Shown: positions 35,072 to 59,305 of the stretch, piece after piece
Numbering within the stretch: the stretch's first letter is position 1
Layout: every line of letters starts with the position of its first letter
DNA from: Naegleria gruberi
Taxonomy: Eukaryota
DNA length: 64,000 nt
NCBI GenBank assembly: GCA_000004985.1
Contig: GG738906.1
Reading direction: 5' to 3' (one strand)
The notes under the pieces: generated by a model
The model's input: only the letters and a program-made list of their open reading frames with translations
What the model was told of the DNA's origin: nothing
Database searches by the model: none
Made by a program: the position numbers and the translations under genes

Positions 35072-35715
35072 ATGAGCAACAAGGTAATTAAGGTCATTCT
35101 TCTTGGGGATTCTGCAGTTGGAAAATCAAAGTTAGTTGAAAGATTCATGATTGATGGATTTCGAGAGCAACAACAATCTACGTTTGCAGTAAACATCTTC
35201 CCATACAAAGCCAAAATTGATGGTGAAGACTGCGATGTTGAATTCTGGGTAAGTGTTCCGATTTGATCATTTATGATAGAAAATCATTAAAGGATACAGC
35301 TGGTCAGGAGAGGTTTAATAATGTGCATCCATCTTACTATGACAGAGCCCATGCTTGTATTTTCGTTTTTGATGATAGACAAATTACATACAAGAATTTA
35401 GAAAAGTGGTACAACGAATTGCAAACTTATCGAAAGGGTATTCCTTCGATAGTGATCTGTAACAAGATAGATTGTAGGTTTTCTGATTTGAATTAATAAT
35501 GAATAACAACTAATTTTCTTGGAATAGTAAACATGGAGGCAACAAAAACCACTTTCAATTTTGCCTCAAAGAGAGAACTTCCATTATATTATGCCTCTGC
35601 TGCTGATGGAACCAATGTAGTTAAGGCTTTTACAGATGCCCTCAAACTAGCAAAGAAATGTAGAGACAACCCAGAAAAGGAATTTGTGGATGATGTTCTA
35701 GAATTACTAAATTAA
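35072..35715 (+). CDS. RABL2: RABL2 Rab-like GTPase (cilium/IFT-associated); join(35072..35248,35293..35473,35528..35715)
   Basis: IKVILLGDSAVGKSKLVERFMIDGFREQQQSTFAVNIF...DTAGQERF...ICNKID-L-NMEATKTTFNFASKRELPLYYASAADGTNVVKAF is collinear with human RABL2 (VKIICLGDSAVGKSKLMERFLMDGFQPQQLSTYALTLY...NKIDDINVTQKSFNFAKKFSLPLYFVSAADGTNVVKLF). There is no C-terminal prenylation Cys. Introns are 44 and 54 nt. Confidence 0.8.
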
Positions 35716-35794
35716 ATATTTTTACATTTCTGTTCAACATTTTTTAAATATTTTACAACTTTAATAAATTTAGAATAATAGCAATTATTAAAAA

Positions 35795-36175
35795 ATGAGT
35801 TTGTTGACACAAGATTTGAGTAAAAAATCCGTTTTTAATCTGCATAGTTTGAACAAAATTGATGGTCAAATAGGTTATGGAGTAATAGAGTGTACCAGTG
35901 GAATTATTCAACATGTAGGTATTTAAAAGAATAATTAATGATAAATCAAACGATCGGAAAAGAATGAAGGAAAATTTAAAGATCAACCTGAATTATTGGA
36001 ACACGTACATGGCATGTTGCAGGATATTAATGGACTGTTTACTTCATCCTCCAATGATGAATCAATTAAAAAATTAACTGTCCGTATTGAAAATGACTCT
36101 CAAAGTGGAAAAAATTTACTCTACCATATTTCCATATCTAAGAGCAATGTATTTGTTGTTCTAACAACATGCTAA
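35795..36175 (+). CDS. LAMTOR4: Ragulator complex subunit LAMTOR4 (C7orf59-like), missed by the ORF track; join(35795..35914,35963..36175)
   Basis: MSLLTQDLSKKSVFNLHSLNKIDGQIGYGVIECTSGIIQH | NEGKFKDQPELLEHVHGMLQDINGLF...NLLYHISISKSNVFVVLTTC aligns with human LAMTOR4 ([28 protein letters not shown]...LLVTVSGQRVFVV). There is a 48-nt GTAGGT..AAAAG intron. The ATG is in an A-run. Confidence 0.65.
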
Positions 36176-36255
36176 ATTCCTGTAAATAAAATTAAATTAT
36201 AATACATTAAATAATTATTAAATTTAAATTAAAAATTATTAGCAAACAAAAAAAA

Positions 36256-37852
36256 ATGAGACTATCAAAGAAACTTTTGAGCGTAGCAAGAATGCACGCC
36301 CAAGCTACATTACCAATCAACAGATGTTTCAATTCTTCTCGATACTATCAAATTGGTAGGTTTATAAAAAACTAAAAAAGCTAACATTCCGAAAGATATT
36401 GGAAAAGTATCTTCAACTTTCCAAATTCCTTCACTTTCTGCTCTTCAAAGTAAAACATTGGAGGTTGTATCAAAGGATAATAGTAAGGATGTCTTCATTG
36501 AAGCACCAATTTTTTCTGGTAAGACTTTGGCCTATCTTGTTCCAACCTTTGAATTAGTTTCTCAAGCAATCAAATCAGAGAGATGGGCAGAAAGACCAGG
36601 CTTCCGTGCCCTCATTGTTGTTCCAACTCGTGAAGCAGCTATTGCTGTTGGTTTCCAAATTGACAAATATATTTCATCACTCCCTGTTGAAGAACGTCCT
36701 TTGGCTCCTGTAACTAAAGGAAATACAGACACTTACACATTCAAGTCAACAAAGAAGGAAGGACACGAAATTATTGAAGACCACCAAGGATATTCCGCTT
36801 ATGAAAAGTCTATTACTCGTAGAGAAAATGTTTATGGACTTTCATATGCTGTTATTTGCGGAGGAAAGAGTATGGAACAAGAAATTACTATGCTTGATGC
36901 AAGCGAGCCAGAAATTATTGTTGCAACACCAGGCAGACTTTTGGACCACATGAAGAATTCTGATTACTTCCGTAATTGTAAGATTGTTGTTGTTGATGAT
37001 TGTCAACTCTTCAAGGGTGATGTCGAAGGAGTTATGGATAAGGTTTTTGAAAATATTCCACAAACAACCCAAAGAGTTTTTGTTGGAACCGCCGAACCTT
37101 TCAAGAAATATTTGAGAAATAGTGATAATGTAGAACTCATCTCATCTACTGAATCAGTTTCAAAGAGTGACGTTAAACAATCAATCATCAAGACACAAAA
37201 TACTGCTGAATCTTTGAAAGTTTTACACCAAATTTTGTCTCAAAACAAGCACAAGAAGGTTGCTGTTTTTGGTGAAAACTCTCAAATTATTCACACACAT
37301 TACTTGATGGCTGAAAATGGAATCTTTTCTCTCCTAATTGCTAGTAAGATTGCTCCTTCCAGATCATTGACAAGTTTTAGTAATTTTAATCAACAACAAA
37401 ATGGTATTGCATTCTGTTCAAATATTGCCTGCCAAATGACTCCTGATGTGGATTTGGTCATTCATTTAGGAGCTCCAGAAACTCAAGAAAAGTACGAAAG
37501 TAGACTTTCTCGAACCTATTCTAAGAATCAATCTCAATCTATTGTCTTGGCCTCCCAAATTCCAGACTTTTTGAGCAATGTACAAATTGTTCAAACACCA
37601 TCTGCATCTTCTGATTTTATTGCTAAACAACTCAGAGTTCCTTCAATCCAAAAAGTTAACGGTGAGAATTTGTTGATCTCTTTAATTTTGAGAAGACAAA
37701 CTACTACACCAGAAGAAAAGAAACAAGCTGTAGAGCAAGCTATTAAGGATTTGAAAGATTTTGGTTTTGTGGAATTACCTAAATTGCCAAAACAACAAGC
37801 TATCAAACTTGGTTTTGAAAAAGAATTGCTTGACGCAGGATTGCTGGAATAA
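36256..37852 (+). CDS. DEAD-box-like helicase paralog with degenerate catalytic motifs and an N-terminal mitochondrial-type presequence; join(36256..36355,36396..37852)
   Basis: Exon 1 (MRLSKKLLSVARMHAQATLPINRCFNSSRYYQIG) is joined through a 40-nt GTAGGT intron with a CTAAC branch site. Motif I is APIFSGKT (AxTGSGKT is expected). PTREAA and TPGRLLDHM are retained. Motif II is VVDDCQ instead of DEAD. Motif VI is SRLSRTYSKNQ instead of HRIGRTGR. Confidence 0.65.
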
Positions 37853-38056
37853 ATGACCATTTATTTTTTCTGCACACCTCCATTGTTGTGTCTAACCAAG
37901 TATTTGAATAATTTGATTTTTTCTGAATAATTAAGGCAGTTTATATTAAAAAAGGAATGTTAAAATATAATGTTACAACTGTTTTTATTAAAATAATTTA
38001 GATGATACCTTTGTACTTCATGTCAGATCCCTTAATATGATCAACCAACCATTGCC

Positions 38057-38274
38057 TTATGAATTGCTTTCAGCATCACCAACTGAGGTCAAACCTAAAG
38101 CATCTTTAACGAATTTGTCGTGAATTTCCATGTGAGCAGCTGATTCAGACCATGCTTTGCGAACAAATCTTCTTCAGTCTTGAAGTGCATAACAACATAG
38201 TCCAACAAGTGGTACACACAAGTTCTGTTGGCATCCAAAGCATTGATCAATTCAAAGAGCTTCTCAATGAAGTT
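38057..38274 (-). pseudogene. Hemerythrin-like (HHE cation-binding) domain remnant with an internal -1 frame disruption and no start codon
   Basis: Minus strand: ...KLFELINALDANRTCVYHLLDYVVMHFKTEEDLFAKH then a frame slip to WSESAAHMEIHDKFVKDALGL. This is the hemerythrin H..E...H / HF.tEE / H...H..FV pattern. The N- and C-terminal thirds of the domain are absent. It directly abuts the stop of the Zn2Cys6 gene. Confidence 0.4.
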
Positions 38275-38281
38275 TCATGAA

Positions 38282-40129
38282 CTAGAGTTTATTGTTTTGT
38301 CTTGAGAATGTATCTCTAATATCAAGCTCTAGCATTAAATTTGAAAATGAGGGTAATACAAGATCGTTTGATTGGGGTTCACTAATTTTTTGTTCGCTTC
38401 GTAAATAGTTTCCTGCACTGGATACACTTGAGATTTGAGAATTAAAACTAGATCCAATAGAATCTGAAATGGATGATGTATTAGAAATTGGTGTTGCACC
38501 GAAAGAGGAGACACTCGATTGAGAACCAATTGAAGCCAAAGATATTTTCAAAAGAGATGATGGTGAACTGTTGGAGGATACTGATGAAACTACACTACTT
38601 GGGGTAGCCGAACTGAGAGTATTATTCATTTGTCTAACCTTATCAATTTTCTTTGGTCTACCTCTCTTCTTTTCTGGAAGGTCAACACATTTCTTTCCCA
38701 ATCTTACACATCTCAAACAGGGCCTTTCCTTAGAGCATCTCTTGTGAACTCTTCTACATTCAGAGCATGATCTTTTCCCTTCACTAGTTGAGGGTTGATC
38801 ATAATCATCACCAGCTTCTTTTGAACTTGAAGGATAATAGTTAAAGTCCATGGTTTCAGCACTCTCATCCTTTTCAACCATTCCACTTTGGGAATCAAGT
38901 GCCATCTTTAACTTTGATGCACTTATTTCAGGAGCATTGGGTTTTGCAAATATTTCTGTATTCTTAATTGTAGATGGAAGTGGCTTAAAAGATTTATCCT
39001 CTAAACTCTTTTCGTCTAATCTCATTCTTTGGAAGGTGGTTGAAAACGATGGTTGGTGAGGAGACTCGAATTCTTCTGTTGACAGAGGAGTTAGTGGGGA
39101 AATTGTGTCCTGAGAACTATTTTCCCTGCAAATTGTATAGACTGAGAGCCTGTTTGGCTGATTCAAAGGTGTATTGCTTGGTTGGTTGGTAACATATAGA
39201 GGTTGGTGCAGAGTGGTAACAAACTGCTTATCTTCTTCGACTTTGTAGGAATGAATTTGGTGAGGAGAATTGAGAACGGGTGAGAAGGTTGTTTGTTGAG
39301 TGATTGGTGTTTTAAGAGAAGTAAGAACTGGAACATATTTTACATCTTCTCTTTGGAAGTGGAGAGATCCTCTTGTTTGAGGATGATAGATTGTTCTTGG
39401 ATCATTGGTTGGAATTATTCTATTGTGGTGAACAGGGTGATTGGAAGGTGTATTGGAGTGGACCACCTGTATAGTTTGGGTTGGGACAGAGTGATGAAAA
39501 TGATGAGCCTGAGCTGGCACCTGAGATACAGTAGTGGTTGGTTGCGAGTATGCCACGTGGGTTTGATGAAGTACAGTTGCTCCTTGTGGCAAGTTGGTGT
39601 AATAAGGCTGGTTCTGCTGAAGAGTAACATGTCCGTTTTCCAATGAATAAGCATTACTTGCTGAAGAAACAATGATTGGTTGTGGAGAGACTTGTACTCG
39701 TTGAGGGTGAATAGAATTTTGAGGTGTTGTGGTGCCATTTTCAATGAACCTAGTCGTGCCATTAATGGATGCGCTCAACAAGGATGAATTACTTTGCGTT
39801 CTAGTAGTTGGGTGGGCAATGAGAGATTGGCCACTTTGAATAGGTGTTGCTGAAGAGTAGATAGGAGAGCTAATATTGGATTGACTTTGAGGTTGGATTA
39901 ATTGTTGATGTGTAATTATTTGAGGTTGGTAATGGTGATGTGCAGGAATAACATGAATATTAGTTGGTGTGTGACTGATAACCTGTCCAGAATTTGGTAA
40001 TTGATGAGAAGGAATAATACCTGTTGATGATGATTGTGTTGAATAAACAGTACCCGGTTGTTGAAAACCACTGTTTGATGTTGCCATTCTTGTGTGAGCA
40101 TTTTGAGAATAATAATATTGAGAAGACAT
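38282..40129 (-). CDS. Zn(II)2Cys6 zinc-cluster (GAL4-type) DNA-binding protein with an adjacent AT-hook-like KKRGRPKK
   Basis: CSECRRVHKRCSKERPCLRCVRLGKKC fits Cx2Cx6Cx5Cx2Cx6C. A long Q/S/T/P/H-rich N-terminal region follows a typical activator layout. Confidence 0.7.
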   Translation of the reverse strand: MSSQYYYSQNAHTRMATSNSGFQQPGTVYSTQSSSTGIIPSHQLPNSGQVISHTPTNIHVIPAHHHYQPQIITHQQLIQPQSQSNISSPIYSSATPIQSGQSLIAHPTTRTQSNSSLLSASINGTTRFIENGTTTPQNSIHPQRVQVSPQPIIVSSASNAYSLENGHVTLQQNQPYYTNLPQGATVLHQTHVAYSQPTTTVSQVPAQAHHFHHSVPTQTIQVVHSNTPSNHPVHHNRIIPTNDPRTIYHPQTRGSLHFQREDVKYVPVLTSLKTPITQQTTFSPVLNSPHQIHSYKVEEDKQFVTTLHQPLYVTNQPSNTPLNQPNRLSVYTICRENSSQDTISPLTPLSTEEFESPHQPSFSTTFQRMRLDEKSLEDKSFKPLPSTIKNTEIFAKPNAPEISASKLKMALDSQSGMVEKDESAETMDFNYYPSSSKEAGDDYDQPSTSEGKRSCSECRRVHKRCSKERPCLRCVRLGKKCVDLPEKKRGRPKKIDKVRQMNNTLSSATPSSVVSSVSSNSSPSSLLKISLASIGSQSSVSSFGATPISNTSSISDSIGSSFNSQISSVSSAGNYLRSEQKISEPQSNDLVLPSFSNLMLELDIRDTFSRQNNKL

Positions 40130-40498
40130 TTTTCATCACCAAGTACTTGTGCTCCACAAGATAATGACTGTAAGCGTATTAAGGGTGATTTTTTGAACGA
40201 ACAATGTATTATGAGGCAAATACGTTGCGTCTTTTTTTCGCAGAATAAAGTACAGTATTACGCTGTAATAGGTTGTTCTTTTACAGCTCTAACTATTTTT
40301 CTCCCTTTCTCCTTTGAAAATTTTCAACTCCACAACTTTCCATAACCTAAAGCTTATAACATGTTTTAGTGAGGTATCGAGCACACAGTAGTAGGTATCT
40401 TGATCTGTGTCAAAATTTTACAAGCTGTCATAACAGGAAATAGTTATTTGATACAAATTGAAAGAGAATGATAATGGAATTTTAAAATTTTAAAAAAA

Positions 40499-42505
40499 AT
40501 GCAAAAATCTGTTGGTGTAGGAAGAAAAGTGTTGGTAACTTCCGGTTTAACAAGACTACTCCAACAACCAAAACATGCCAACTATTCAACCAATAGCAAA
40601 AGTTGTAATAGTAGATGGTTTGATCCTAAAGACTCACAACATATAACAACCCCGGTTGCTCTTTATAACACTCTCTCCAAGAGTAAAGTATCATTAAAAA
40701 TTGCTAAGCGATTATCGGATGTGCCAGTTATAAATTGGTATTCTTGTGGACCAACAGTTTATGATGATACACATTTGGGTCATGCTCGTAATTATGTTTG
40801 TCTTGACATTATTTATAGAATTTTAGCCCATTATTTTAACTATCCTGTATTACATGTTATGGGAATTACAGATGTTGATGATAAAATACTTAAAAGAGCA
40901 GCTGAGCTTGGAAAACAACCTTCGGAAATTTCTCGTAAATATGAATTTGATTTTATTGAGGATATGAAAAAATTGAATGTAATTCAACCTTATGTGTACA
41001 CAAGAGTAACAGAACACATTGAAGAAATTAAACAGTTTGTTGAAGAAATGGAAAAAAATGGTTTTACCTATACTACTGCAAATGGTGGTGTTTATTTCGA
41101 TTCTAAGAAGTTTGAACAAAATGATCATTACTATGGAAAACTTTCTCCAAATAATGCACAAGAATCAATTCAACAGGAACACATTGAACATAGGGAGGAG
41201 AAAAAGGATCCTAGAGATTTTGCACTTTGGAAATTCACATCTAGGGATTATTTGGGTTGGGAAAGCAAATGGGGATATGGTAGACCAGGATGGCATATTG
41301 AGTGTAGTGCCATGATTGACCATATTTTTAATAATAAGAGTGGTGCTGCAACTATTGATATTCACTCTGGTGGAATTGATTTGGCTTTTCCACATCATAA
41401 CAATGAAATAGCCCAGAGTGAAGCAAAGAATCATGCTCATTTTTGTTGCAGTAGAGAAACAAATTGGTGTAATTATTTTATTCATGTTGGACACTTACAC
41501 ATTAAGGGACTCAAAATGTCAAAATCTTTAAAAAATTTTATTACTATTAAGGACTTTTTGAAAAGGTATAGCCCAGACCAATTTAGAATATTCTGTTTGC
41601 TACATCAATATAATCAAACTTTGGATTATAATGAAGATGCCATTGGAGAAGCAATTAAGGTTGAAAAGAGAATACTTGATTTTTTACATAATGTTTCATT
41701 TTATAAGCAAGAATGTGAGGAAAGTAATACTATTATAAGAAAATGGAATACCGAGATTATCAATTATATGGAGAAACTAGCTATTTTAAAGCAAGAAATA
41801 CACAATGCTATTTGTGATGATTTTAATACTCCTACAATAATGTCAAAAATATGTGAAATAATTAACATTACTAATGCCCTTTTTTTCACAAATAACAATA
41901 TTCAAAAAGATTTCAAAGCTGCTGAACTTCTCGAAAACACCTCTTCATACATTATTAATTTATTAAATATGTTGGGATTACAGATATCAACCATCAAAAC
42001 AATCCCTTCTAAAATTGAATCAGAAGAACAGGTGGCTAACCATCCATTCACTTCTAGAATCATTGATACGCTAATGGAGTTTAGAGCTACAATAAGAAAA
42101 GAGGCTCTGCTCTCAGATCCAAAACAGACAAAAATCTTACAACTCATTGACGATTTGAGGGATCACAAGTTGAGAGAATTGGGTATAAGGATAGACGACA
42201 GAAGTGGAGAGAAAAGTGTTTGGAGGTTTGATGTCAGTAATCAAGATATTGGCTCAAATGTTGCCGACCATCACACCCTCAAATTAGCTCAGAGACAACA
42301 AGAGGTTGAACTAAAACTCTCCATTTCAGTTTCTGACTATTTCAAGAAAATACCCCAACACAAAGACAAGCATTATTCTCAATATGACCAAAACGGTATT
42401 CCCACACATGATGCTGAAGGACAACCACTCTCCAAGTCTGCTCTCAAAAAGTTACATAAGGAAGTAGAAAAACATGCAGAATTTTTAGCCAAACACAAAA
42501 ATTAA
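40499..42505 (+). CDS. Cysteinyl-tRNA synthetase (class I) with an N-terminal extension that may be a targeting peptide
   Basis: HIGH motif (DTHLGHARNYV), KMSKS motif (KMSKSLKNF) and the CysRS zinc-site context (WYSCGPTVYD...WHIEC). Confidence 0.9.
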   Translation: MQKSVGVGRKVLVTSGLTRLLQQPKHANYSTNSKSCNSRWFDPKDSQHITTPVALYNTLSKSKVSLKIAKRLSDVPVINWYSCGPTVYDDTHLGHARNYVCLDIIYRILAHYFNYPVLHVMGITDVDDKILKRAAELGKQPSEISRKYEFDFIEDMKKLNVIQPYVYTRVTEHIEEIKQFVEEMEKNGFTYTTANGGVYFDSKKFEQNDHYYGKLSPNNAQESIQQEHIEHREEKKDPRDFALWKFTSRDYLGWESKWGYGRPGWHIECSAMIDHIFNNKSGAATIDIHSGGIDLAFPHHNNEIAQSEAKNHAHFCCSRETNWCNYFIHVGHLHIKGLKMSKSLKNFITIKDFLKRYSPDQFRIFCLLHQYNQTLDYNEDAIGEAIKVEKRILDFLHNVSFYKQECEESNTIIRKWNTEIINYMEKLAILKQEIHNAICDDFNTPTIMSKICEIINITNALFFTNNNIQKDFKAAELLENTSSYIINLLNMLGLQISTIKTIPSKIESEEQVANHPFTSRIIDTLMEFRATIRKEALLSDPKQTKILQLIDDLRDHKLRELGIRIDDRSGEKSVWRFDVSNQDIGSNVADHHTLKLAQRQQEVELKLSISVSDYFKKIPQHKDKHYSQYDQNGIPTHDAEGQPLSKSALKKLHKEVEKHAEFLAKHKN

Positions 42506-44903
42506 TCTCTTTCTGTAATGCCATTCCTAATAAATTTGCTAACAACGGCAGCAGAAGGATTGAAATTTTCCTGGTCTTGTTTCATATTTACAAGTAAATC
42601 ACGAAGCTTTGAGGTAACACTCTTTTGCTCAAGCAATTTTTCCAAATCTTGTTCTAGTTTGATATTGGTTCGTTTAAGCTTGTCGTTTTCTTTTTTAAAA
42701 TGTTTCAAGTCCTTTTCAATAACTTTGAATTCCTTTCTCATCAACTCTACTTCTCTGTCTTTGTCTTCAAGAGAAGTGACGAGATAGTTGTATGGTTTTG
42801 ATGAGGTTTCAAATTGTTTTTTCATTTTGTTCAATCTTTCAGTGAGCATTGAAATAGTTGATTGGTCTTTCTTCTCTTTCTCTCTTTTTTCTGTTAATTG
42901 TTTCTCCAAGTCAGAAACTTTTCTGGCCAGGTAAAGACTGTACTTTACTCTTCTTCCCATATTTGTTGGTACTAGCGCAGTTAACTCACTAAGTATTCTT
43001 TCATGACCATCTTTTTCTTGATAATCTGGAGAGTATGTTTCAATAACTTTGTCCAAATCTCTTTCAAGGTCTCTGTATTGGTTCAATTCCTTAGTTACAG
43101 CACTGAGAGTTGTTTCCAGCTCTGTTATTTTTTTTCCAGTTGAATTCTGCAAAGAATAATATTCTGTTTTGAGAACATCTAATTTTTTCTTCATAATCTC
43201 ACTTTCAATCTTTGATTGCTTCAGATTTTCTGCATGTTCCATAAGAGACACTTGCAATCTTTCATTATCAAAAATTTTAAGGTTTGCTTGTGTCCTAATC
43301 TCACTGATTTGCTTTTCCAGGGTACTTTGGAGGGTTCTAAACTCCATCATAACATTAGTATTAGTTTCCTTTAGGTCTTCCACTTGTCTCTTTAACTTTT
43401 CTACTTGAGCTTCGGCCCCATCTTTTGATTCTTTTAACATTCTATTCTCTCTTTCATAATTTTCTTGTGAGTTTTGCTTGATAATATCCAAATCTTTTTG
43501 AGTTTTTTCCTTTAGCTTTTGAATTTCTTCTTGAAGACTTCTTTCATATTCAGTTTTAGACTCCTCTCTTGTTGATAATAGTTTATCATAAAGTGTCTTT
43601 TTTTCTTTTCTCATTTCTTTCAACTTATTTTCTAATCTCAAAATGTCATCCTCATTCTTACTCGATTTGTTTGAGTTATTTTCAATTTCTTTTGTTAGAT
43701 ACATTTTATCATTCTTAAGTAGTTCAACTTGTTGTTTAAGGTTTGTAAGCTCCAAATTAAGTGTTTCTTTTTCCTCTCTTGCAATATCAAGGGATCTCTT
43801 TACCAATTCTAATTCTGATTGACATTTTCTGGCTTCTTCTTCATAGTTTGAGGCTTTTAGCTTTACTGCATCAAACATTTCACTTTTGGTTTTAATTTCT
43901 TCCACCATTACAGTTTTTCCATTTAGTTCATCCAATAACTTTTGGCATTTTGTTTCAAGCATATCTATTTGAATCAAATAATCTCTTTTCATATCGTCAT
44001 TCAATCTTTTTTGGTGATCAGAATCTCGCACGATTTTCTCGTACTTTTCATTAATTAATCTAAGATTATCATGAAGTATCTCATTCTCTTCTTGATATTT
44101 CGAAATACTTTCTCTTGTTTCTCTCCTGACTTGATCTATAATCTTTGTATTTGCATCTGTAACCTCATTACTTTTTTGATTTAACAAAACCTGATATTGA
44201 TTTTGGAGTTGAACAAGTTTTTTTTCATTTCTACAAGGGTTATTAATCAAAGTTGTTCTGCTACTTACTGTTCGAGTTGAGTTTTAAATTTGAGAATTTC
44301 CATTTCTAAAAAATGTTTTTCGTTTTCCTTCTCCTGCTCTAATTGGGCTAATTGCATTTGAGCTTCTCTCCTTATTCTCTCACATTCTAATTTTTTCTTT
44401 TGTAATTCTAATTTAAGAGATGACACATTGGATTGAACCTCTCTTGTGTGGTAAGAGTTGATGGATGTGATATCAGTACTAATTGATATTTCCTCTTCTG
44501 ATAAAAGAGGTGATGACAATAAACTAGTATCTACAGTTTTCGCTCTCTTTTTCTTTGGACTTGGTGTTGAAAGTAAATTTGATGAAATTGGACTACTAAT
44601 TGTTGAAATTTCACTCGCTAGTTTATCTAATTCATCATCATCAAAACAAGTATTAAGGTTTGCTTTTTTCATCATTTTTCCTAAAAGTCTCTTCCCTTGA
44701 TCTTTGGGAGAGGAAGTACTATCCGAAGAACATCCGGTAATTGGTGATGAAAAATAAGAAGGGACATTAAAGTAATTTGTATCGGTTTTTGAATAGTTAT
44801 TCTTGATTGGGGTCCGAAGAATATCTTCTCCAAACAACCCACCTTCAAATTCTGACATTTTTTTTTGTTTGCAAAAAGTACAAAATTTGGCGGGAGAATA
44901 CAT
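42502..44903 (-). CDS. Long coiled-coil protein (~790 aa), unassigned; join(44903..44269,44230..42502). The A-run start ATG is probably at 44858.
   Basis: A 38-nt GTAAGT..TGTAG intron (phase 2) joins ORFs 44265-44903 and 42502-44250. Heptad-rich throughout. Its stop overlaps the CysRS stop by 4 nt on the opposite strand. Confidence 0.55.
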
Positions 44904-44912
44904 AGTTGAGTT

Positions 44913-46805
44913 TTATTTGGTATTTAAACTTAACCATACAACTTTGCCTGAATTGGTACCAATAGCAAGATAACCAGTTGATTCCTTTGGCTGTGTTGGA
45001 TCTTTTAGATCTGGACAATAAGATATACAGGTAGCATAGTCATTCGAAAGGGTGGTCAAGGTACTTCTTGGTAACAAGTTTGGAGTGGTAACAACCTGTA
45101 TTTCACCATTCGTCTTACCATAAAATATATATGATCCATCATGGCTGAAACAAATGCATGTTAAATCTGGAATATCTTTGGAGTGTTGTTTCGAAAACTG
45201 AACTACTCCAGCATTTGGTTTTTTTCCACATGTAATTATTTGAATGGAATTACCACATCTAAGAACTAGCTCTGTCTTCTTGTCAGGATTAATGTGCAGT
45301 TCTGGAATTTCATTTCCTTGACAAATGTTTGAGTCATACTTCACCACTGTATTTGGTAGAACCTCCCCTTTGGCATTAATATCAACCCTATAAATGCACC
45401 CATTTCTTGCAAGAGCATACTTAAGATTAAGATCACCCTCAGAACAATCTAGTAATCTAATGATTGGACTATCTCCAAGTTTAATCAAAGAAGTGAATTC
45501 GTGTTCGTACTTCATATATGCCAATCTACCATCAAATGTTCCAACAAGAGGCTTGCTTGTATCTTTTTCTACTAAAATTGATGTCATGTTAACATCAACC
45601 ATTTGTGCATCCCATAAAAAGTACTTGTCTGTTTCCAATTTAAATAATAAAAATTTGTCATCCTTCACTGCTTCCATAAACACTGTATTGACACCAAATG
45701 TGTAGGCTGGAAGTAAATCATTCTTGGTTTGTAAAAAGTTAGCATATTTTGCATCCAGTAGATAATTTGGAACATCCTGTAATTTTTCATTTGCTGTCTT
45801 GAAGGTCTTTGCAGACAAGTTATTTCCTTGCTTTGATAAGAACATTAACCTAGAATTTGATTTTGGTGGTTTTTGAGGAGGTGCATAAATAATAGTATGC
45901 ACAGGTGCTTTGAACACCTCAGCAGTATCCAAAATGGAGATAGAGTATTTGTGCTTTTGTTGATTTAAGGAAGGAGTTGACGGTTCTGGAATATTAGCAA
46001 CAATATTTCCTGGATTTTCGGTGGCATATTCATAATAAGATCTCTTCTTTTTAGTAGAAGATCTATCAGTACGAGAATAGTCACTCCAAATACTGGAAGG
46101 TTGATTGTCAACTACCATTTGATATGTATTGCCTGTTTGTGTGAAAGAGGGAGGCTCTGCGTTGAATACATTACTCATATTTAAGATTAATGAAGTAGGA
46201 TCTAGTTTCTCATATTTTGTTGGAATGTCTTGGTTTTCTGCTCCGTAATGATCTTCAATATTTTCCAAATCTTTTGTGACAACCTCTGCACATTTACTGA
46301 TTACCATTTCTCTTGAGATCACATTCGAAAGTTTTTCGAATTTTAACAAATCTCCATACTTGAGTTTAGCTTCCTGATCATAAAGACCCATATTTTCCAT
46401 GTCAGTAATCAACTTCATAGCTCTGGCAGTCTCTCCTTTTAACATTAAACACGGAAAGTATGCATAGAGAATTCTACGCATAACAGTGTTAAATTCAGCA
46501 TCTCGTATAAATTTTTTGCATTGGTTAAGGTAATTAATAGCCTTTTCAAAATCACCACCTTGGATAAATCGGATCAATCTTCTCTTATTGAACAAGTTTA
46601 ACGCTACTTCCAGACTAACTGAATTATTATTTTCAATGGTTAAAACAACATACCTTTCAATTACGTTATGAAAGCCTCTTTCGTGGAGATAGTGGAACAT
46701 GAATGTGTCTATTTGATCGATAACTTCAGGGTTCGGATTTTGCACCAATCTCTTTCTGATGTCTTCTCTTATCAGCCTGCGTGATGGACGATTGTCTGTG
46801 CTCAT
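44913..46805 (-). CDS. LisH/CTLH-domain protein with a C-terminal beta-propeller (WD40-like); WDR26/SMU1-type architecture
   Basis: LisH-like IDTFMFHYLHERGFHNVIERY, CTLH-like NKRRLIRFIQGGDFEKAINYL, and C-terminal repeated beta-strand blades. Confidence 0.5.
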   Translation of the reverse strand: MSTDNRPSRRLIREDIRKRLVQNPNPEVIDQIDTFMFHYLHERGFHNVIERYVVLTIENNNSVSLEVALNLFNKRRLIRFIQGGDFEKAINYLNQCKKFIRDAEFNTVMRRILYAYFPCLMLKGETARAMKLITDMENMGLYDQEAKLKYGDLLKFEKLSNVISREMVISKCAEVVTKDLENIEDHYGAENQDIPTKYEKLDPTSLILNMSNVFNAEPPSFTQTGNTYQMVVDNQPSSIWSDYSRTDRSSTKKKRSYYEYATENPGNIVANIPEPSTPSLNQQKHKYSISILDTAEVFKAPVHTIIYAPPQKPPKSNSRLMFLSKQGNNLSAKTFKTANEKLQDVPNYLLDAKYANFLQTKNDLLPAYTFGVNTVFMEAVKDDKFLLFKLETDKYFLWDAQMVDVNMTSILVEKDTSKPLVGTFDGRLAYMKYEHEFTSLIKLGDSPIIRLLDCSEGDLNLKYALARNGCIYRVDINAKGEVLPNTVVKYDSNICQGNEIPELHINPDKKTELVLRCGNSIQIITCGKKPNAGVVQFSKQHSKDIPDLTCICFSHDGSYIFYGKTNGEIQVVTTPNLLPRSTLTTLSNDYATCISYCPDLKDPTQPKESTGYLAIGTNSGKVVWLSLNTK

Positions 46806-46921
46806 TTTTTTTGTTTTTAATTTTTAAATTATTTTTGAAAATTTATTTTATTTTAAAACGAACAAATAAATTTGTGAATCAAAAGAGTTTGTTTATTCAA
46901 CAAATATGATGTCAGAAAAGA

Positions 46922-48162: not shown

Positions 48163-48557
48163 TTTTTTTTTAATTTTTTAAATGTGATAAAGTTGGCGGG
48201 TGATGACTGGCGGGAGATGAAAGAATGATTTATTAAAGATTTTTAATGTACAACAAATTAGCTTCCGGCAATCTATGTATTGAACTAGAGCCTTGATCAC
48301 TTGCTGGGTGTGATGAACATTTCCATCTTACTCTTATATTGTATTTTATTAATGATTACTTCATTAACTGTACTCTAATATTTTCTATATTTTTAAATAT
48401 TATACTTGTAAAACATGTTAAAGTGTACAATCAACCTTCTTTAATTATTTAACCAAATAATATCTATGCATTCTAAAATTTACTTCTAATAATATTTCCT
48501 TGAATTATAAAAACAAGATTGACAATAATAAAATATTAAAACGTTTATTAATTAAAA

Positions 48558-50081: not shown

Positions 50082-50115
50082 ATTATTATTATTTTTATAA
50101 AATTCTCATTCTAGA

Positions 50116-51216
50116 TTATATTACTTTCTTGTTTGGTGGTACCATTCTGGAATTAACCAAACCTTTGAGAACGAAAATCCTTTTCACCCACCAACCCAAA
50201 TACCAAATTAGAGGCAAAAAGGCCACATATTGAATCCAAGCAAACTTTGCTTTTTCAAACCATTCCACCTCATACAAATAGCTCTGAATTGGAATTTTAA
50301 TATTAATATTAATTTCCAAAGAATCTGTCGAAGTGTCTGGTCCTTTCTTGCAAAACGATGATTCTTGAGAAAATACTCCAGCAACTTATCAACTTAATGA
50401 ATTGACTAGTTTCCAAAAACTTACTGTCTCTGTCATGTAATGTTTGAATAAAATTTGAAATAGATAATTCATCCATAGAATTAATTTGAGAAAAGTCAAT
50501 AATAGGATCAGCATATGTTAAAACTTGATCAGTTCCATGAAAAGCATAATTTTGTCTCAATTTTAATGCTCCATTGATGAGTATTTGAGAACATCTTGTT
50601 GTGTCTGTCTTGATATGAGCTAGACCGGTGACATTTAAATTTTTGTATCTCTTTTGGGATTGTATTTCCAAAGAAAAAGAGAACTTACAGCCAGAAGTAT
50701 TCCAAATTCCATCAAAATGTCAATACTAGAAAAAGAGTCAGAAGACAACCTAGGTATTTGAAATTGGTATTGAAAAGTTTCTACATCGTCTGGATAATAA
50801 TCTCCATATCTTATGTGTAATTTAGTAAGATCCACTAAACGATCCGCCAAACTAATGTGAGTTGAAGTAAATACAGGAAATACGAAATTATTGTTAGGTA
50901 TTAATGAATTAGCATTTTTGTTGCTAGTCCATAACTTGTAACCTGAGTTAAAACTTGATGGTGAAAGGAAGGTAATCACTCTCTGCGTAAAGGTGACTCT
51001 AGGTCTTTCAACAATATTGGAGTAATCAATCCACAATTCTGCACAAACTTATTCTGAAATCTGTTCCGAAATAAGTTACTTACTGTTTGTCAATAACGGA
51101 ACAACATAGGGCATCACTAAAACAAAAATTGCATACAATATTATTAAAATAATAGAACCCTTCGATCCATAACTAGAGAACTTGGTTGTCACATACTCTT
51201 CGTGAATTACTGGCAT
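50116..51216 (-). CDS. Predicted membrane protein of unknown function, about four exons; join(51216..51084,51038..50689,50608..50425,50384..50116)
   Basis: An N-terminal TM helix (SIILIILYAIFVLVMPYVVPLL) and a C-terminal TM helix (WIQYVAFLPLIWYLGWWV). Three ORF-track fragments in different frames are linked by short introns: GTAAGT of 45 nt and GTAAGT of 40 nt, both phase 1. The middle exon boundary is uncertain. Confidence 0.4.
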
Positions 51217-51267
51217 TTTTTTGTATGTTGTTTGAGCGGGAAAGTCTAAAAATATTCATCGAAAAGA

Positions 51268-54200
51268 ATGCCATTATCAAATAAGCGGGGATCAGGCACC
51301 CTTGATTACTATGTTTCGATGGCCACAAAAGGAGGAGAGGATGCAAAGCTTGAAAGTAGTAAAATTTTTCTTGAACTTTCGGAGGAGAGTAAGTATGAAA
51401 TTAACATTTACTAATTTAAAATAGAGAAATTTGCACTTGTTGTTGATGCAGTAGATGCCCTCTTTCATCTAATTGAAACAAGTGAAAATGTGGAAATTAT
51501 TAAAAATTCGTTGATGACAATGGTAAATCTTTGCAAAGAAAAGGCTCAGGTTGATTACTTGATTGCTGAAAAAAATTGTTTCAGACGTCTGGCATCTGCA
51601 GTATCTTTCCATAATGTTCCTTGTCAAATTCTTGCAACAAGATGCATTGGATTATTAGCAAAATATCCTACAAGTGGAATCAGATTTGTAAGTGATGGAG
51701 GGTTGTTACCTATATTATGTTCCCTTAAACCAGACCAAAATACGGAAATGTTAATAGAAATTTGTAAAACTCTAGCTACATGTAATATAAGAGGTGAGTT
51801 TTAAACAATTTAAAGGTTTTTAACAATATGTAGGAGAATGTGCAACAAGAATTGTGGAAGTTTGGGGATTGGAGTCTCTGGGAGAGCTAATTTCAAAATT
51901 TATCAGAGGAAAGGATTCAAAATCAGTAAAGATACTAACCCACCTTTCGTTGGTATTGTCTAACCTATCTCGTTTTAAAAGTATTGGGGCGAACATGTTT
52001 AAAAATGAAAAACTTCAATTAATTAATATTCTAACAAATATTTTGAGTGCATCTCATGTCACTATGGAAGCTAAGAGGGCCGCAGCAAAAACTTGCTACA
52101 ATCTTGTAAATAATCAATATATTAATGACAGTATTGTTGTAGATGAAGTACTGATATCACTATTAATGAGAAAGCATTTTGAAACGGATTATCTGTTCAA
52201 ACATACTGTTGTAAAGACTCTCGATTGTGCTGTGAAGGAATGTATTGAATTGAAGAAGGAGGAATTAATGATTAGGATTATAAAAAAGTATCAAAGTTTG
52301 AGCTTTACAGAATGGATAATCAACTCTATTGGATGTGATAACGTTCAAATTATAGTACTAAAAGTTTTTATTGCAAGTAAGTGGGCAGTACATGATAATG
52401 AAAATATGTTCAGTAATACCTTTCTCCACTCTCTATTAGTTTGTATGCGAGAAACTATTAGTACAACAGTAAGGAGGGTTTGTGATGAAGTTCTCTATCA
52501 GTTTTGCAATATGGAAAGGTTTAAAAAAGAGATTATTGAATATAGAGGTGTAGATATTCTAATTCCCCAATTGACCTTTAAGGAAATCAAATCAAAGCTT
52601 TGGGGAGTTAAGGCATTAGCTAGGATAATGACAAATAGAGATTATGCTTTGAGTTTCGTAAAAAATTATGGTATTGTTAAACCAGCTGTAAAATGTTTCA
52701 TGATAACTCCAGCAAAATCACTAGAATATCAAGATATTTTTATGAGTACCCTACTAATAATATCTGCTATTTCTGAAACAACAGAATTTAGAGAACATTT
52801 TCTTCAATCTGGTGCTATCAACAAACTACTGGATATATTGGAAAGAGCCGATCGATCTGAGCATAGGACATTAATCTATTGCCTTAATATTATTATTGCG
52901 TATGTAAATAGTGGTAAGTTATTATTGGAAAATCATTAAAAATTTAACTTGAATGATAGCAAACTACGAAAGCTCTGGTAATGCAAACTTGAAAATTGTA
53001 AGTGAGAAGAGATTATGTAGGGTTATTGAAAATGTTACCTCAAACGATTTTTCATTATCTGGACGAGTGGTCTTGTTAATTCAAGCCTACTCACAGCATT
53101 GTATGTTTTGATTTTGATTTTTTGAATTAATTATTTAATTAGCCAATTCTCCAATATTCGATTTTTGGAATATACTCTACAACAAAGCTCTTGAGGTAAT
53201 TAGATGCAATGAAGATTACAACAGCTATTTATATCAGAGAATAACTTGTTTTCAAATGCTTACATCTATTCTTTGTAAACCATATATTTTTTCAAATTTA
53301 AACCCAGAAATAATCATTAATCATTATCTCAATATTTTTTCAAAGAGTAATCCTTTGAGTTATTTGAAAGAAACATCAGCTAAAGGACTTCTCTACTTTT
53401 GTAAGCAAACACCGTCAGTATTTAGATCTATTCTTTTGGAATATGAGGAAGATTTAGTAGCTAGTCATAAGGAATTTTCATTTGGAAACAATACTTGTTT
53501 CTCCAATGTTGGGTCATTCAGAGAATTTTTAACTAGATATCTTATCTTTTTTAAAAAGGAAAAGGCAAAGAAAATAAGACGATATTTAATTTTGACTAGA
53601 ATTCAGAGATTTCTATTGTTTCTTCTAGCATTTGTTAGAAGTAAGAATGAAAATGCACAATTTGTGGACACGCTAATTAGTCAAGCTAGTTCAAAATATT
53701 TGAAGATGGAAGGGGAAAAGAGAACTATAAATCCTTTGATGTATATACCTCTTGCCCACAAGCATCACTATGATATTGACACAGCTTTGATTGGACAAAC
53801 CATACCATTCCAACCATCCAGCAATGATACACAAAAACGATTGAAAGAATTGGTTCTCCAAAAGTACTCTAATACTACCCCTTCAAATAGTCCCCTTAAT
53901 AGAAGAAGATCAAATTCAGGATTCAGTTTTGGAACAAGAAGTTCTTCGATGTGCTCGACCCATAGTCCAGTTATTCTCATGGGTGACAAGTTTAGCTCAA
54001 ATAATTGTATTACGGATGAATCAATATTCTCACTAGGCAGTACTGGAGAGTTTGGCTTAACGGTCCAAAGTAATATCAAAAAAACTCAAAAGAAAGATTC
54101 AAGTCATTCCCCTACACCTACTGTATCGCTATTAGAAATGTGGCAAGATGAATACGGAACTAAAGAGATTCTTCGGGAAACAAACTTTAAGAGTTTTAGA

Positions 54201-54473
54201 ACTGGTTCAAGCTCTTCAACATTGCCACATATAAACTCGATGAGTACATCGACAACACCAATCCCTCACCAAACCAACAACAACAGATCACATGCTCAAC
54301 GGCCAGCATCTGCTCTCTCATACAGCAAGCCAAGGAAAGAAGTGACCGATTTGAATCCAGAATTGGAACGAAGATATCTGAACAAGAGCAAAGAAATGGG
54401 AATCATTAAGCAGGGTACTACTTTCCCTTTCGAAAATCTTCTTTCTTCCAAATACAAGCAGATATTAAAATAG
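51268..54473 (+). CDS. Armadillo-repeat protein (~1000 aa) with a Ser-rich C-terminal tail; join(51268..51388,51425..51793,51834..52913,52960..53100,53143..53195,53238..54473)
   Basis: Six exons reconstructed from three ORF-track ORFs plus two unlisted small exons. Introns are 36-46 nt (GTAAGT, GTGAGT, GTAAGT, GTATGT, GTAATT); the first has a TACTAAT branch site. ARM-like helical repeats run through exons 2-3. Confidence 0.6.
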
Positions 54474-54527
54474 TTCCTATTAATAAAACTATGTACAAGG
54501 TTTGGCGGGAAATAAAAAAAGAAAAAA

Positions 54528-57500
54528 ATGGACACTATAAAGATTGAGCCAAAGCTCATAGATATCAATTCTGAAACGTATTGGGGTATGATAGATAGGT
54601 TGTATGCTCAATGTGAGAGAGCTATGGTAAGTAAATTACATAATTATAAGATTCCGAATGGTTTTATCATTACAGGATAACGGTTATATTGAAGAAAACA
54701 AAGCTGGTAGTTTTGAAGACTTTTTTCCAAAGCTGCTGCAACTCCAAGTTCCTGTTCTTGAGGGAACATCAATTGATGACCTTATAAAATTATTCTACGT
54801 TACACAAATGTCATTGGAGTAGGTATTCAAAAATTATTGAGTGATAATTATGTAAAAGAATTTCGCAGGATAGGGAGAAATCTTCAGAAGGGGAAATAAT
54901 GGAGTTGGAAAAACAAAGTAAGAAAATACAAAAAGAATTGGAAAATGAAGTGAGGAGTCATCAAGATACAAAATCGTTACAGGAACAACAAACAGTTACA
55001 ATTTCTAACATGGAAAGAAGTGTTAGAGAAGCTAATGAAAAAATCAAACGACTACAAAGTGAAGTAAATGAACTCAATGTGCAAAATAAGGATTTGGATT
55101 TGAGACTTAAAACTGACATGGATCAAAATGTAAAAAGTAAAAAGGGAATTGAACGAGCTCAAGAAGAAAGACAAAATTTACTATATGAAATCAAAGCGTT
55201 AGATGAAAAATTAAGAAATGCAACAAAGGTTAACGAGAGAAAAACTAAAGATATGGAAGAAATGACAACAAAAATAACAAAGTAAGTGATTTTAGAAATG
55301 TGAATTGTTCAAACCAATCTAGTTTCGAGAGAGACCTCCAAGAAAGTAAGATTCTCACAAGAGAAATGAGTAGAACAAACAAGAAATTAGAGGAAGAATT
55401 GGACATTTTAAGATCAAACATTGTTGAGCTTGAAAAGGAGAAACAATCCATCACTTCAGCAGTACAGAAAAAAGTTAAAACTTTGGAAGAACACTCTTCA
55501 AATAGTACTAATGAAATCAAAGAGCTTCAGACATATATTTCCCAACTCGAAAGAGATTTGAATATTGAGAAGGAGAAATTTGAAAAAGTTCAACTGCTGT
55601 CATCAGATAATGAATCCAGGATTACAGAACTAGAAGAAAAGATCTATCAAAAGGAAGCAATTATTTACAAGTTAGAAAACGAAATTGAGGAGATTCATCA
55701 TCAGCACCAAGTTCAGAGTCAAGGAAAAGTTGATTCGGATGGAAGAAGCGAGGGTGAAAACACCTCTATTAATCAGATCAACACATATCAGGAGCAAATA
55801 CGAAAACTCAATTCACAATTAGAAGCTATCACCTCGACTCTGGACGAAACAGTTTCTGAAAGTGCAAGAAAATCTAAAACTGTTGAAGAGTTGACAAAGA
55901 GTGTGTCCGACAGAGAGAATGAGGTGGCCACAATCAAAGCAAAATTACGTGAATATGAAAAAGGTGTTTCAGGTCTAGATCAAGCCTTGAAAGAAATTAG
56001 ATATTTACGAGAGCAAATATCTCTAAGAGATAAGGATATAGAGGAGTATAAAACTAAGCTTAACACTTATATTATGGGAATACAAGAATACGAAGAAGAC
56101 AACAAGTATTTGAGGAACAAGCTGGGAATACCACTGAATGAAAATTTGAAAAAGTATGCTCTTAAAAACTTTGCTGAAATTCAAATACAGACAGATACTA
56201 TACCTCCCGAAATTATTGAAAAAGAGGTTGTGAAAGAAGTTATTAAGGAAGTCCCAGTTGTAAAGTATGTTCAAAAGGATGCTCATAAACCAAAGGCAAT
56301 TGATAAATCGGTACAGGTACAGATAGTACTACACCCAACAACCCCACCACCACCAATACAGAAAGTTGAAACCGTAACCAGCCAAAGAAATGTAGAAACA
56401 AATAATACCGAATCTCAAACTGAAAATAACTATAGAAACTCTCAGACGCAAACATTAATTGTAAATGATACCCAAAATGAAGATCTTATTGCAAATTTGA
56501 GAAGAAAGATTGCCTATCTGGAATCACTATTATCTGCTACTGCTAACACAAGAGAAAATTGTTGCCAGACTATTCAATACGAGGAAGAGCCTCGAATTAA
56601 TCATGAAGCTCTCGAATTGAGGAAAATTATTTTGGAGAGAGAAGAATACTATAAAAATATTATCAAAAAATTGAATGAGGCCATCGAGAAACTTAAATCC
56701 AACAATGAATCCCTCATAGAAGATGCAACAAAAATACAGACATATTATCATGGAGAGCATTCAGTCTTGGAAAGTACAATAGATGTAGTGAAAAGAGAGT
56801 CAGAAAAACGAATGGCGGATATGAATGAGGAAATACAATTCCTCAATAATGAGATTTCAAGGTTGCAATCTGCGCTTAAAAGTGAAATTTTAGAAAAGAG
56901 AAGTTTACAAGATGAGAAAAAACAAACGGATGTTGTAATTTCACAACTTCAATCTTCAAATTCAGACAAGGATTCTCAACTTGGAAAGTTACAACATCGT
57001 TTGGAGAGTTATAGAGTTTCTTGCAAATCAATGGAAAGAAGTTTGGAAGAAAAAATAGACACCATCGAGGAATTAACACTAGCTAAACTCAAACTTGAAA
57101 ATAAGATCAAGAGTTTGGAATCAAAATTAAAAGAAACTGAAGAAAAATTAGAAGCATTTACCGACCATACAAGATTACTTCTAGAAAAGGAAGCTATTAT
57201 AGAGAATTTAATCCTAGATAAGGACCAGATTGTGCATGAACATGAGGTTGACCTTGAATCAATTAACAAGTTCTCTGAAAATATGAAAAAAACAATAGAA
57301 AATTTGAATGAAATGCTTGACCAAAAAGAGACCACCATACGGGAGTATGAGCAGAAAATAAATGAAATAAGAGAAGAACACATGAAAGACAAGTTTGAAT
57401 CACAACAAGAATTGTCTAGACTCCAATCAAGACTTAATAATGACAACAGTGATCTCTTGCAAAACTTGAAGAAGAATATTAAGAAAATAGAAAATCAGGA

Positions 57501-59305
57501 AGAACCTGAAATTCCACCAGAGGCTGGGTAAGTTGTTTGCTTTCTTTTAAATTTCAATTATTAAGAGTTCGTATTGAGGAGGTGGAGGAAATGATTGCAG
57601 CAAAGACAAATGATATTAAAATATTAACAGGAAGAATTTCAAGATTAGAGAATCTACTCAAGGAAAAAGATGTAATGCTACATGAGGCTATGAAGACTGT
57701 AAGTACATAATTACTAATTAAGAACTTAACATTTTCCAGTTTGATGAGATGAAGTCAAGACTAGATCAAGAAATTGAGGAGCACAAACAAGCAGCAAATG
57801 AAATGCATATTCAGCTCATCTCAGAACGAGACGAGTGCCAAAAACTTAAGAGACAACTCTCTGAACATGCAATGAAAAAGCAGCTCACTCTCCAACAAAA
57901 AAAGATGGAAAAACTCAACCAACAAAAGGAAAATCTTGAACAAACTGTTAAAAACATTTCCAACAAGCTAGTCAAGGCAGAAGAAAAAATAATGGCTTTC
58001 GAACTCCACAAAACTAATGTGGATAAATTTGAAATAGAGAGACTCAAAAGAAAAGAGGAAAAACTCCAAGAAAAGCTCCAAGACCAACTCAAAACCAGCA
58101 TCAACCAAAATACGCACTACCAAGTTGTAACCGAGAATCAAAAACTGAAAAGCAAGTTAGAAGAACTTTCAAAGAAAGAAGAAATTTTAAACAAAGATAG
58201 GCAGGAATGGACCAAAAAGTTAGAGGAAATAGGAAAGGAACTTGATGAAACAAAAAAGGGTAGACAAGAAAAAGCAAACAAGATCATTGACCTTCAAAAA
58301 GAAATACAGGTCCATATCAAAGCAAAAAAAGCCCTAAAAATTGAACTTGAAAAACTACAAAAGGAGAATGAAGAGCTCTCAAAAACAAAAGTTGGATTCC
58401 ACGAAGAAAAGAAATTGCATAGCCAACAAGTATCTAAATTAATGAAAAAGTATAGTGAACTTCAAGAGGAAAAAAACAGAATATCTGATGAACTAGGAAA
58501 TGTAAAGAAAGAACTTTCAGAGCTTTCAAGTGATAAAGAAATAGAGAAGAGACATGCAATTGAAAAGGTGAGAGTTGAATATCAGAAAATGTTGAATAAT
58601 GCCAATTCTGAAATTGATAGATTGAGAAAAGAAAAAGAAGTAGTTGAATTGGATAATAATGAAAACAAAGAGTTCCTCGAGAAGAAACAACAAGAAATGT
58701 ATGGAAACATCTCCAAAGCACTCAAGGAGAAAGATGACGCTCTTAAAGAAAAAAACAAGCTTGTAGGTGAAACAAAGGAGCTTCGAAAAGAAAATGAGGA
58801 GCTAAAGAATGCTCTCACTACACTGCAGCAAGAAATATCTGAAATAAGTAAGGAGAAAGATTTAGAAAGAAAAAGAGCAGTAGAAAAAGTTAAACAAGAA
58901 TACCAAAAACAATTACTTCAAACTAATTCAGAAATTGATAAGATGAAAAAAGAAAAAGAAGTAAGTGAACAAGAGGAACAAAAATCATCTGCCAAACTGA
59001 AAAGTCAACAATATTTTGAAAGAAAACAACAGGAAATGTCTTTAAATTTATCCAAAGCTCTTAGAGAAAAGGAGGAAGCTATCAAGGAGAGAAACAAGCT
59101 TCTCAATGAAGCTAAGGAGTTGAGAACCGAAAATGAAGAATTGAAAAACGAGTTGAATGCATTTGATCCAGAATTTTTCGAAGACATTGAAGATCTAAAA
59201 TATAATTATGTTCAAGCATTAGAAGAGAACAAATTGTTCAGGAAGAAACTCCAAGAATTAAATGTTTCAATAGAGGAGGATATTCCCAAAAGAAGAGGAA
59301 GATAA
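54528..59305 (+). CDS. CEP290: CEP290 homolog (ciliary transition-zone coiled-coil protein, ~1517 aa); join(54528..54626,54676..54818,54874..55281,55323..57527,57566..57698,57740..59305)
   Basis: The C-terminus LNAFDPEFFEDIEDLKYNYVQALEENKLFRKKLQEL matches the human CEP290 C-terminal motif LENFDPSFFEEIEDLKYNYKEEVKKNILLEEKVKKLSEQL. The N-terminus IKLFYVTQMSLE matches IHLFRITQSLMKMK. KGVSGLDQALKEIRYLREQISLRDKDIE matches SGVYGLEDAVVEIKNCKNQIKIRDREIE. Five introns of 38-55 nt. Confidence 0.75.

Follow-up and report, generated by a model that had tools for sequence, protein, structure and literature searches.

The 64-kb stretch of DNA analysed here (hereafter the window) carries two plus-strand genes of cilium-associated families, one for the small GTPase RABL2 at 35072-35715 and one predicted to encode a compact form of the coiled-coil protein CEP290 at 54528-59305. 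Both had been named in a preliminary description made from the sequence letters, and gene models, homologs and a profile comparison confirm that they lie at these positions. That description placed them in a single span, 35072-59305; both genes are inside it, but it is not one feature, as about 19 kb of unrelated genes lies between them. The window has a GC content of 31-39% and a dense gene content, and its genes are split by very short GT..AG introns of 38-55 nt. It belongs to the nuclear genome of Naegleria gruberi NEG-M, with which a 33% GC content and the short introns agree, since three of its proteins, RABL2 (XP_002671329.1 / D2VX90), a 615 amino acid (aa) Zn2Cys6 protein (XP_002671380.1) and CCT-theta (XP_002671326.1), are residue-for-residue identical to N. 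gruberi proteins whose accessions are all on one NEG-M scaffold. N. gruberi belongs to the Heterolobosea and is a classic amoeboflagellate. The earlier proposal of a cilium-building organism, in which an amoeboflagellate was the first type named, was thus correct, and flagella are well known in this species: its amoebae, which have no centrioles, form a pair of basal bodies and a pair of flagella de novo (PMC4819266). The proposal is nevertheless textbook for N. gruberi, and because both the ciliary nature of the organism and its RABL2 are already in the literature this part of the finding is an ordinary one.

The CEP290 gene begins with an ATG at 54528 and finishes with a stop codon ending at 59305. 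Its six exons (54528-54626, 54676-54818, 54874-55281, 55323-57527, 57566-57698 and 57740-59305) are joined across five GT..AG introns of 38-55 nt into an uninterrupted reading frame of 1517 aa (~178 kDa), and the product is almost wholly coiled coil. Two parts of it are conserved. The N-terminal one, aa 51-500 (54727-56172), was delimited by hhalign and BLASTP; it includes an LIKLFYVTQ block and also the strongest N-terminal block, YEKGVSGLDQALKEIRYLREQISLRDKDIEEYK...NKLGIP, at aa 428-487 (55954-56133). Within the C-terminal one, aa 1444-1503 (59081-59260, from BLASTP), the hallmark motif FDPEFFEDIEDLKYNY spans aa 1471-1486 (59162-59209) and leaves 31 residues to the C-terminus; its letters are exactly those that the preliminary description had quoted. 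The same description called the protein near full-length, which holds in that the gene is complete but fails in that the protein is only ~60% of the canonical length and has no detectable Pfam CEP290 domain. The orthologs retrieved from outside Heterolobosea are 2170-2842 aa long, and the usual ~2200-2800 aa is not reached here.

The central part of the protein (56200-57527) is divergent. A linker rich in Pro, Thr and Gln, which is not coiled (aa 510-597, 56200-56463), comes first, with coiled coil after it; this central part gives weak hhalign blocks and stands in the place where canonical CEP290 has ~900 more residues and the CEP209_CC5 domain. Pfam searches did not detect CEP209_CC5 (PF16574) in the 1517-aa protein, nor in its central 400 aa alone at E<=10, and the segment aligned to CC5 has 6 identical positions out of 52. 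Directly ahead of the C-terminal motif the protein contains an internal tandem duplication of ~107 aa (aa 1256-1362 and 1363-1474, encoded at 58517-59173 on the plus strand) with a BLOSUM62 local score of 296. The first copy is N. gruberi-specific, having no equivalent in N. lovaniensis or Willaertia, where the sequence is different. No tandem repeat was found at the DNA level beneath this duplication, so the two copies have diverged.

On what grounds can such a protein be assigned to the CEP290 family? Pfam found no CEP290 domain above noise in the 1517-aa protein, in its central 400 aa or in its N. lovaniensis and Willaertia orthologs, and membership was therefore examined by profile methods instead. 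Word-indexed homolog searches, which score relatives among the 8000 candidates sharing most words with the query, returned only two relatives of the full-length protein among the candidates scored (from N. lovaniensis and Willaertia, both labelled "hypothetical protein") and, when the C-terminal alignment was the query, one 70-aa fragment among 259 candidates scored. A heterolobosean profile made from residues 330-1517 of the three proteins was run exhaustively with HMMER against 1.84 billion representative proteins, of which 447 matched at E<=1e-3. The non-heterolobosean matches fall mostly at two places: profile positions ~45-175 (the YEKGVSGLD...NKLGIP block), which match residues ~300-520 of 1900-2800 aa proteins, and positions ~1129-1190 (the C-terminal motif), which match extreme C-termini. 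The long matches that carry a name are Branchiostoma CEP290 (XP_066265930.1) and the Spizellomyces centrosomal protein of 290kDa (XP_016605467.1), and those that carry none, 2170-2842 aa in length, come from flagellated protists and algae (Salpingoeca, Andalucia, Rhodelphis, Mastigella and Mesostigma). Pfam CEP209_CC5 is present in the amphioxus, chytrid and choanoflagellate matches, which are therefore bona fide CEP290s. A homology check of the kind that had been suggested for both proteins returns CEP290s with the profile of this one and RABL2s as the best matches of the other (below).

BLASTP comparison with these same seven CEP290s gives two collinear anchors, of which one pairs the N-terminal ~500 aa of both sides (E=1e-8 to 1e-12) and the other the last ~60 aa of each (38-56% identity). 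When the heterolobosean alignment is compared by hhalign to an alignment of eight CEP290s, residues 51-500 align to 13-485 with a probability of 99.9% and E=1.5e-37; the Viterbi mode with no re-alignment gives a single collinear alignment of residues 33-1503 with 5-2454 of amphioxus CEP290, in which the central blocks have only 7-22% identity and large template insertions. Of the 151 proteins examined, 59 contain the C-terminal motif, and each long, named CEP290 among these has it 22-45 aa before its end; the motif occupies the same place in Branchiostoma, Spizellomyces, Salpingoeca, Mesostigma, N. lovaniensis and Willaertia. The heterolobosean profile has no match in the PDB at E<=1e-3, even though that database is rich in myosins and other coiled coils, so generic coiled-coil similarity does not lie behind these results. 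These comparisons of sequence place the product of 54528-59305 in the CEP290 family and make it, as far as one can judge, the CEP290 ortholog of Naegleria.

The compact size is not peculiar to N. gruberi. The orthologs from N. lovaniensis (C9374_009529, 1527 aa, 55-57% identity) and Willaertia magna (ABK040_007811, 1489 aa, 42-44% identity) are full-length matches, and a Percolomonas cosmopolitus protein of similar size (A0A7S1KTX2, 1383 aa) matches in part, by way of a cluster representative; it, too, is a "hypothetical protein" not annotated as CEP290. When the N. gruberi, N. lovaniensis and Willaertia proteins are aligned, their starts and ends coincide and several non-heptad blocks prove strongly conserved. 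Since the compact form is common to N. lovaniensis, Willaertia and Percolomonas, we consider it a heterolobosean trait and not the result of a truncated model. Pfam did not detect CEP209_CC5 in the N. lovaniensis and Willaertia orthologs, and it is likewise undetected in the full-length (2313 aa) ortholog of the jakobid Andalucia, so its absence fits divergence in Discoba and not exclusion from the family.

A full-length word-indexed query of a collection of 15 billion proteins, which holds other N. gruberi proteins, found no N. gruberi protein for the CEP290 locus, and exact look-ups of the 1517-aa model and of the 518-aa open reading frame (ORF) of the last exon in this collection were negative. 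For N. gruberi, a survey of predicted proteomes from 2012 listed "only a predicted AHI1 orthologue" (PMC3454386), by which the species was scored as lacking CEP290. A 2014 transition-zone survey remarked that more CEP290 homologues probably exist and that coiled coils confound the searches for them (PMC4092220). From the negative full-length search and the absence in the 2012 survey together, we regard it as probable, though not proven, that the N. gruberi gene catalogue does not include this gene and that it was scored absent. We favor, with some reserve, the general reading that Heterolobosea (Naegleria, Willaertia and Percolomonas) use a CEP290 of ~1400-1530 aa that is recognisable only in its N-terminal ~500 and C-terminal ~60 aa and is without CC5 and ~900 central residues, and that the N. 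gruberi gene is apparently absent from the predicted proteome, which would explain the absence scored in the survey. The sole new element in the window is then this compact, apparently unannotated ortholog of a known family, which corrects a reported absence.

The RABL2 gene has an ATG at 35072 and a stop codon ending at 35715, and its three exons (35072-35248, 35293-35473 and 35528-35715) encode 181 aa and are separated by GT..AG introns, one of 44 nt and one of 54 nt. Pfam finds Ras in this protein at 124.8 bits, and the G motifs are intact: G1 is GDSAVGKS (aa 12), G3 is WDTAGQE (aa 59), G4 is NKID (aa 116) and G5 is SAAD (aa 143), while G2 (T37-F38-A39) shows the RABL2-specific T(Y/F)A signature that replaces the TIG of other small GTPases (PMC4736243). 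There is no C-terminal prenylation cysteine (the last Cys is residue 164 of 181 and the end reads ...VLELLN), as expected for a family that is not prenylated (PMC4736243). In a search of 5.8 billion protein clusters the best matches are N. lovaniensis (92% identity), Acrasis (67%) and Andalucia RABL2 (63%), and after them come many entries for animal rab-like protein 2A/2B (57-60%). Every named entry among the matches listed is a RABL2 or a Rab-like protein 2. These homologs score 226-380 bits and conventional Rabs from the PDB (Rab11/Rab1) only ~95-99 bits at best, so the closest relatives are RABL2s and not another Rab, Ran or Ras. No RABL2 structure was found in the PDB by sequence, where generic Rabs were the only matches. 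This gene is not new: N. gruberi RABL2 is already in the survey of Elias et al. 2016, according to which both the hypervariable C-terminal extension and the last ancestral intron are absent from it (PMC4736243). The same survey agrees with the earlier claim that RABL2 is restricted to organisms that build cilia, as no well-established cilium-lacking species keeps it (PMC4736243).

The ~19 kb between RABL2 and CEP290 is taken up by unrelated genes in both orientations: a DEAD-box helicase, the Zn2Cys6 protein, Cys-tRNA synthetase, the DNA primase small subunit, an eIF2B-family subunit, a 110-aa protein without a family, a large WD40/coiled-coil gene and two ORFs without a family. Outside the two ciliary genes the rest of the window is also housekeeping in character (MCM, SMC, CCT-theta, TAF7 and others). 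The gene for the 110-aa protein lies directly 3' of RABL2 and has two exons (35795-36175, plus strand, intron 35915-35962); its product matches no Pfam family. The Zn(2)-Cys(6) binuclear cluster domain of the 615-aa Zn2Cys6 protein (38282-40129, minus strand) is of a "fungal" type, here in a heterolobosean. A similar gene is located near the N. lovaniensis CEP290, and a 3.6 kb ENA metagenome contig, ERZ929261, encodes exactly the same 615-aa protein, which suggests that its sample contains N. gruberi DNA. Three adjacent minus-strand ORFs of 630, 212 and 582 aa at 42502-46805 are probably one large gene, with a WD40 propeller followed by a coiled coil; Pfam and PDB searches gave no convincing family for them, and a ciliary CFAP-type WD/coiled-coil protein was considered and found no support.

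Elsewhere in the window, a large WD40 protein with a C-terminal RING / zinc_ribbon_16 domain (30686-34582, minus strand) has a layout typical of the GATOR2 components WDR24, WDR59 and MIOS. Three ORFs, at 5922-6458 (minus), 17528-18208 (minus) and 21447-22997 (plus), contain domains of bacterial type (DinB family, PhzF-like, and RimK-type ATP-grasp with an N-terminal pre-ATP-grasp), and it is possible that they are horizontally acquired genes. Just downstream of CEP290, a 946-aa ORF (60503-63343, plus strand) resembles p28/DNALI1 inner-arm dynein light chains over residues ~430-600. Its score for Pfam Ax_dynein_light is 22.2 bits, under the cutoff of 26.4; its matches in the PDB include 9y6s_6n (E=5e-6) and Chlamydomonas p28 (7ju4_v, E=3e-3), and it keeps the non-coiled hallmark RQI..QCAERGILL, with its CAERG(L/I)LL core. 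From these similarities it may be an AXDND1-type protein, and so a third cilium-related gene of the window; AXDND1 is a sperm-tail gene. Pfam and PDB sequence searches found nothing convincing in the way of further ciliary genes among the large ORFs at 14424-16856, 27194-29707 and 44913-46805.

What might the two genes do in this organism? The identity of the organism, the gene models and, by sequence, the family memberships were established directly, and the roles are taken from the families. In animals and Chlamydomonas, RABL2-GTP is recruited to the basal body, binds the intraflagellar transport (IFT) complex IFT-B via IFT74/IFT81 and licenses the entry of IFT trains; its recruitment there is by CEP19, and RABL2 is reportedly linked to IFT in sperm tails. 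In Chlamydomonas the Y-links, which connect the doublet microtubules with the membrane and gate the protein content of the flagellum, depend on CEP290. The portion of the 2014 survey that cites Craige 2010 places Cep290 between the doublets and the membrane and implicates it in Y-link formation (PMC4092220), and Y-link-like fibres are seen in electron micrographs of Naegleria transition zones (PMC4819266). If the family roles apply, RABL2 and CEP290 would be used only when the centriole-less amoeba differentiates into a biflagellate swimmer; RABL2 at the basal body would start IFT, and CEP290 would build the Y-link-like fibres. The N-terminal ~500 aa and C-terminal ~60 aa of CEP290 would then be the parts that matter, and the coiled coil between them a shortened spacer. 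We hold with considerable confidence that the best explanation as a whole is two independent, unlinked single-copy ciliary genes, with these roles, lying among housekeeping genes.

Several points weigh against this explanation. The CEP290 splice model comes from sequence and ortholog alignment only, and at the junction of exons 2 and 3 (intron 2, 54819-54873) it leaves a 5-aa gap, SLE-----EKSS where the orthologs have SLEIMMDKEKS. There may be an acceptor shift or an unusual splice at intron 2; translated, the final 6 nt of the intron as modelled would give DR, like the DK/DR of the orthologs. Other splice choices that restore the five residues need introns of 17-23 nt or non-canonical sites and were rejected, and for this reason the canonical 55-nt intron was kept. 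CEP209_CC5 is undetectable and the ~900 central residues of canonical CEP290 are absent. In human CEP290 the middle part has a microtubule-binding region, and functional equivalence of this part does not follow from sequence. Both Naegleria proteins are, moreover, known here through their sequences alone, and CEP19 recruitment, IFT74/81 binding and the Y-link roles are drawn by analogy from other organisms.

Three other explanations were weighed. The 1517-aa protein could be a generic coiled-coil protein that shares only the short C-terminal motif with CEP290 through convergence or domain sharing, and is not an ortholog; the lack of a Pfam CEP290 domain and the mere 7-22% identity over the central 900 residues would fit this, and CEP290 searches are known for coiled-coil false positives (PMC4092220). 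There are, however, two independent anchors, one N-terminal and one C-terminal, in the right order, and the N-terminal region gives the hhalign E-value above by itself. The blocks YE.GV.GL..A..EI...RD..IE and FDP.FFEEIEDLKYNY are not heptad-type low complexity, and the profile that finds nothing in the PDB at E<=1e-3 has CEP290s as its best non-heterolobosean matches. We therefore think a generic coiled coil very improbable and retain CEP290 orthology. The refuting scenario of the preliminary description, that of relic genes left in a lineage which has lost its cilia, is so improbable that it can practically be set aside: no point in its support was found, and N. gruberi forms flagella. Both reading frames are intact and are conserved with N. 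lovaniensis, N. fowleri and Willaertia, the genome has many conserved basal-body genes (PMC4819266), the transition-zone genes AHI1 and Tectonic1 have been published from it, and the window itself holds the third cilium-related candidate.

Could the three genes instead form a co-regulated ciliary neighbourhood? RABL2, CEP290 and the ORF with the Ax_dynein_light-type domain lie within ~28 kb (at 35-63 kb of the window), and Naegleria flagellar genes are induced synchronously in differentiation (PMC4819266), both of which would favor an arrangement that is not due to chance. Against this, about ten unrelated housekeeping genes on both strands separate RABL2 from CEP290, and the N. lovaniensis RABL2 and CEP290 orthologs are on different contigs (716 kb and 836 kb). 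None of the N. gruberi neighbours, RABL2 and the 946-aa ORF included, is within 10 kb of the N. lovaniensis CEP290, and with hundreds of ciliary genes per genome some will be adjacent by chance. As the CEP290 neighbours are not shared and RABL2 is on another contig, the proximity appears coincidental; a ciliary gene cluster was rejected for want of conserved synteny with the N. lovaniensis CEP290 locus, and we judge co-regulation of these genes as neighbours to be quite unlikely. Two unlinked ciliary genes among housekeeping genes remain our preferred explanation.

The CEP290 gene fills a reported gap, that of N. gruberi scored with AHI1 and no CEP290 (PMC3454386). Such absences can reflect a gene missing from a predicted proteome, or coiled-coil divergence, and not true loss, a distinction that matters for the phylogenetic profiling of transition-zone modules. 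Should the compact CEP290 be located at the Y-links, this naturally occurring "mini-CEP290" would show which parts of a ciliopathy protein are indispensable. The compact heterolobosean form also offers a deletion series made by nature for a protein of major importance in human ciliopathies, and a convenient system for testing it would be Naegleria, whose flagella are assembled synchronously and de novo. The finding as a whole amounts to a probable annotation gap and not to new biology.

How, then, do the two genes compare with the known systems? The window RABL2 resembles human RABL2A/B in being 57-60% identical to vertebrate RABL2, in keeping G1-G5 and in having no prenylation motif, and differs from other RABL2s in that the N. 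gruberi copy is without the hypervariable C-terminal extension and the last ancestral intron, two short introns remaining. The N. gruberi CEP290 has the same start, C-terminal motif and compact size as the "hypothetical proteins" of N. lovaniensis and Willaertia; they differ in that these relatives have protein records that are not annotated as CEP290, whereas the N. gruberi copy has no record in the collection searched. Compared with canonical CEP290 (NPHP6) of animals, chytrids, choanoflagellates and green algae, the compact protein shares the N-terminal ~500 aa with the YE.GV.GL block, the FDP.FFEEIEDLKYNY motif ~30 residues from the end and the collinearity of the two, and like it is mostly coiled coil and occurs in an organism that builds cilia; it differs in its length (1517 aa versus 2170-2842), in having no detectable CEP209_CC5, and in its divergent centre, its linker and its internal duplication.

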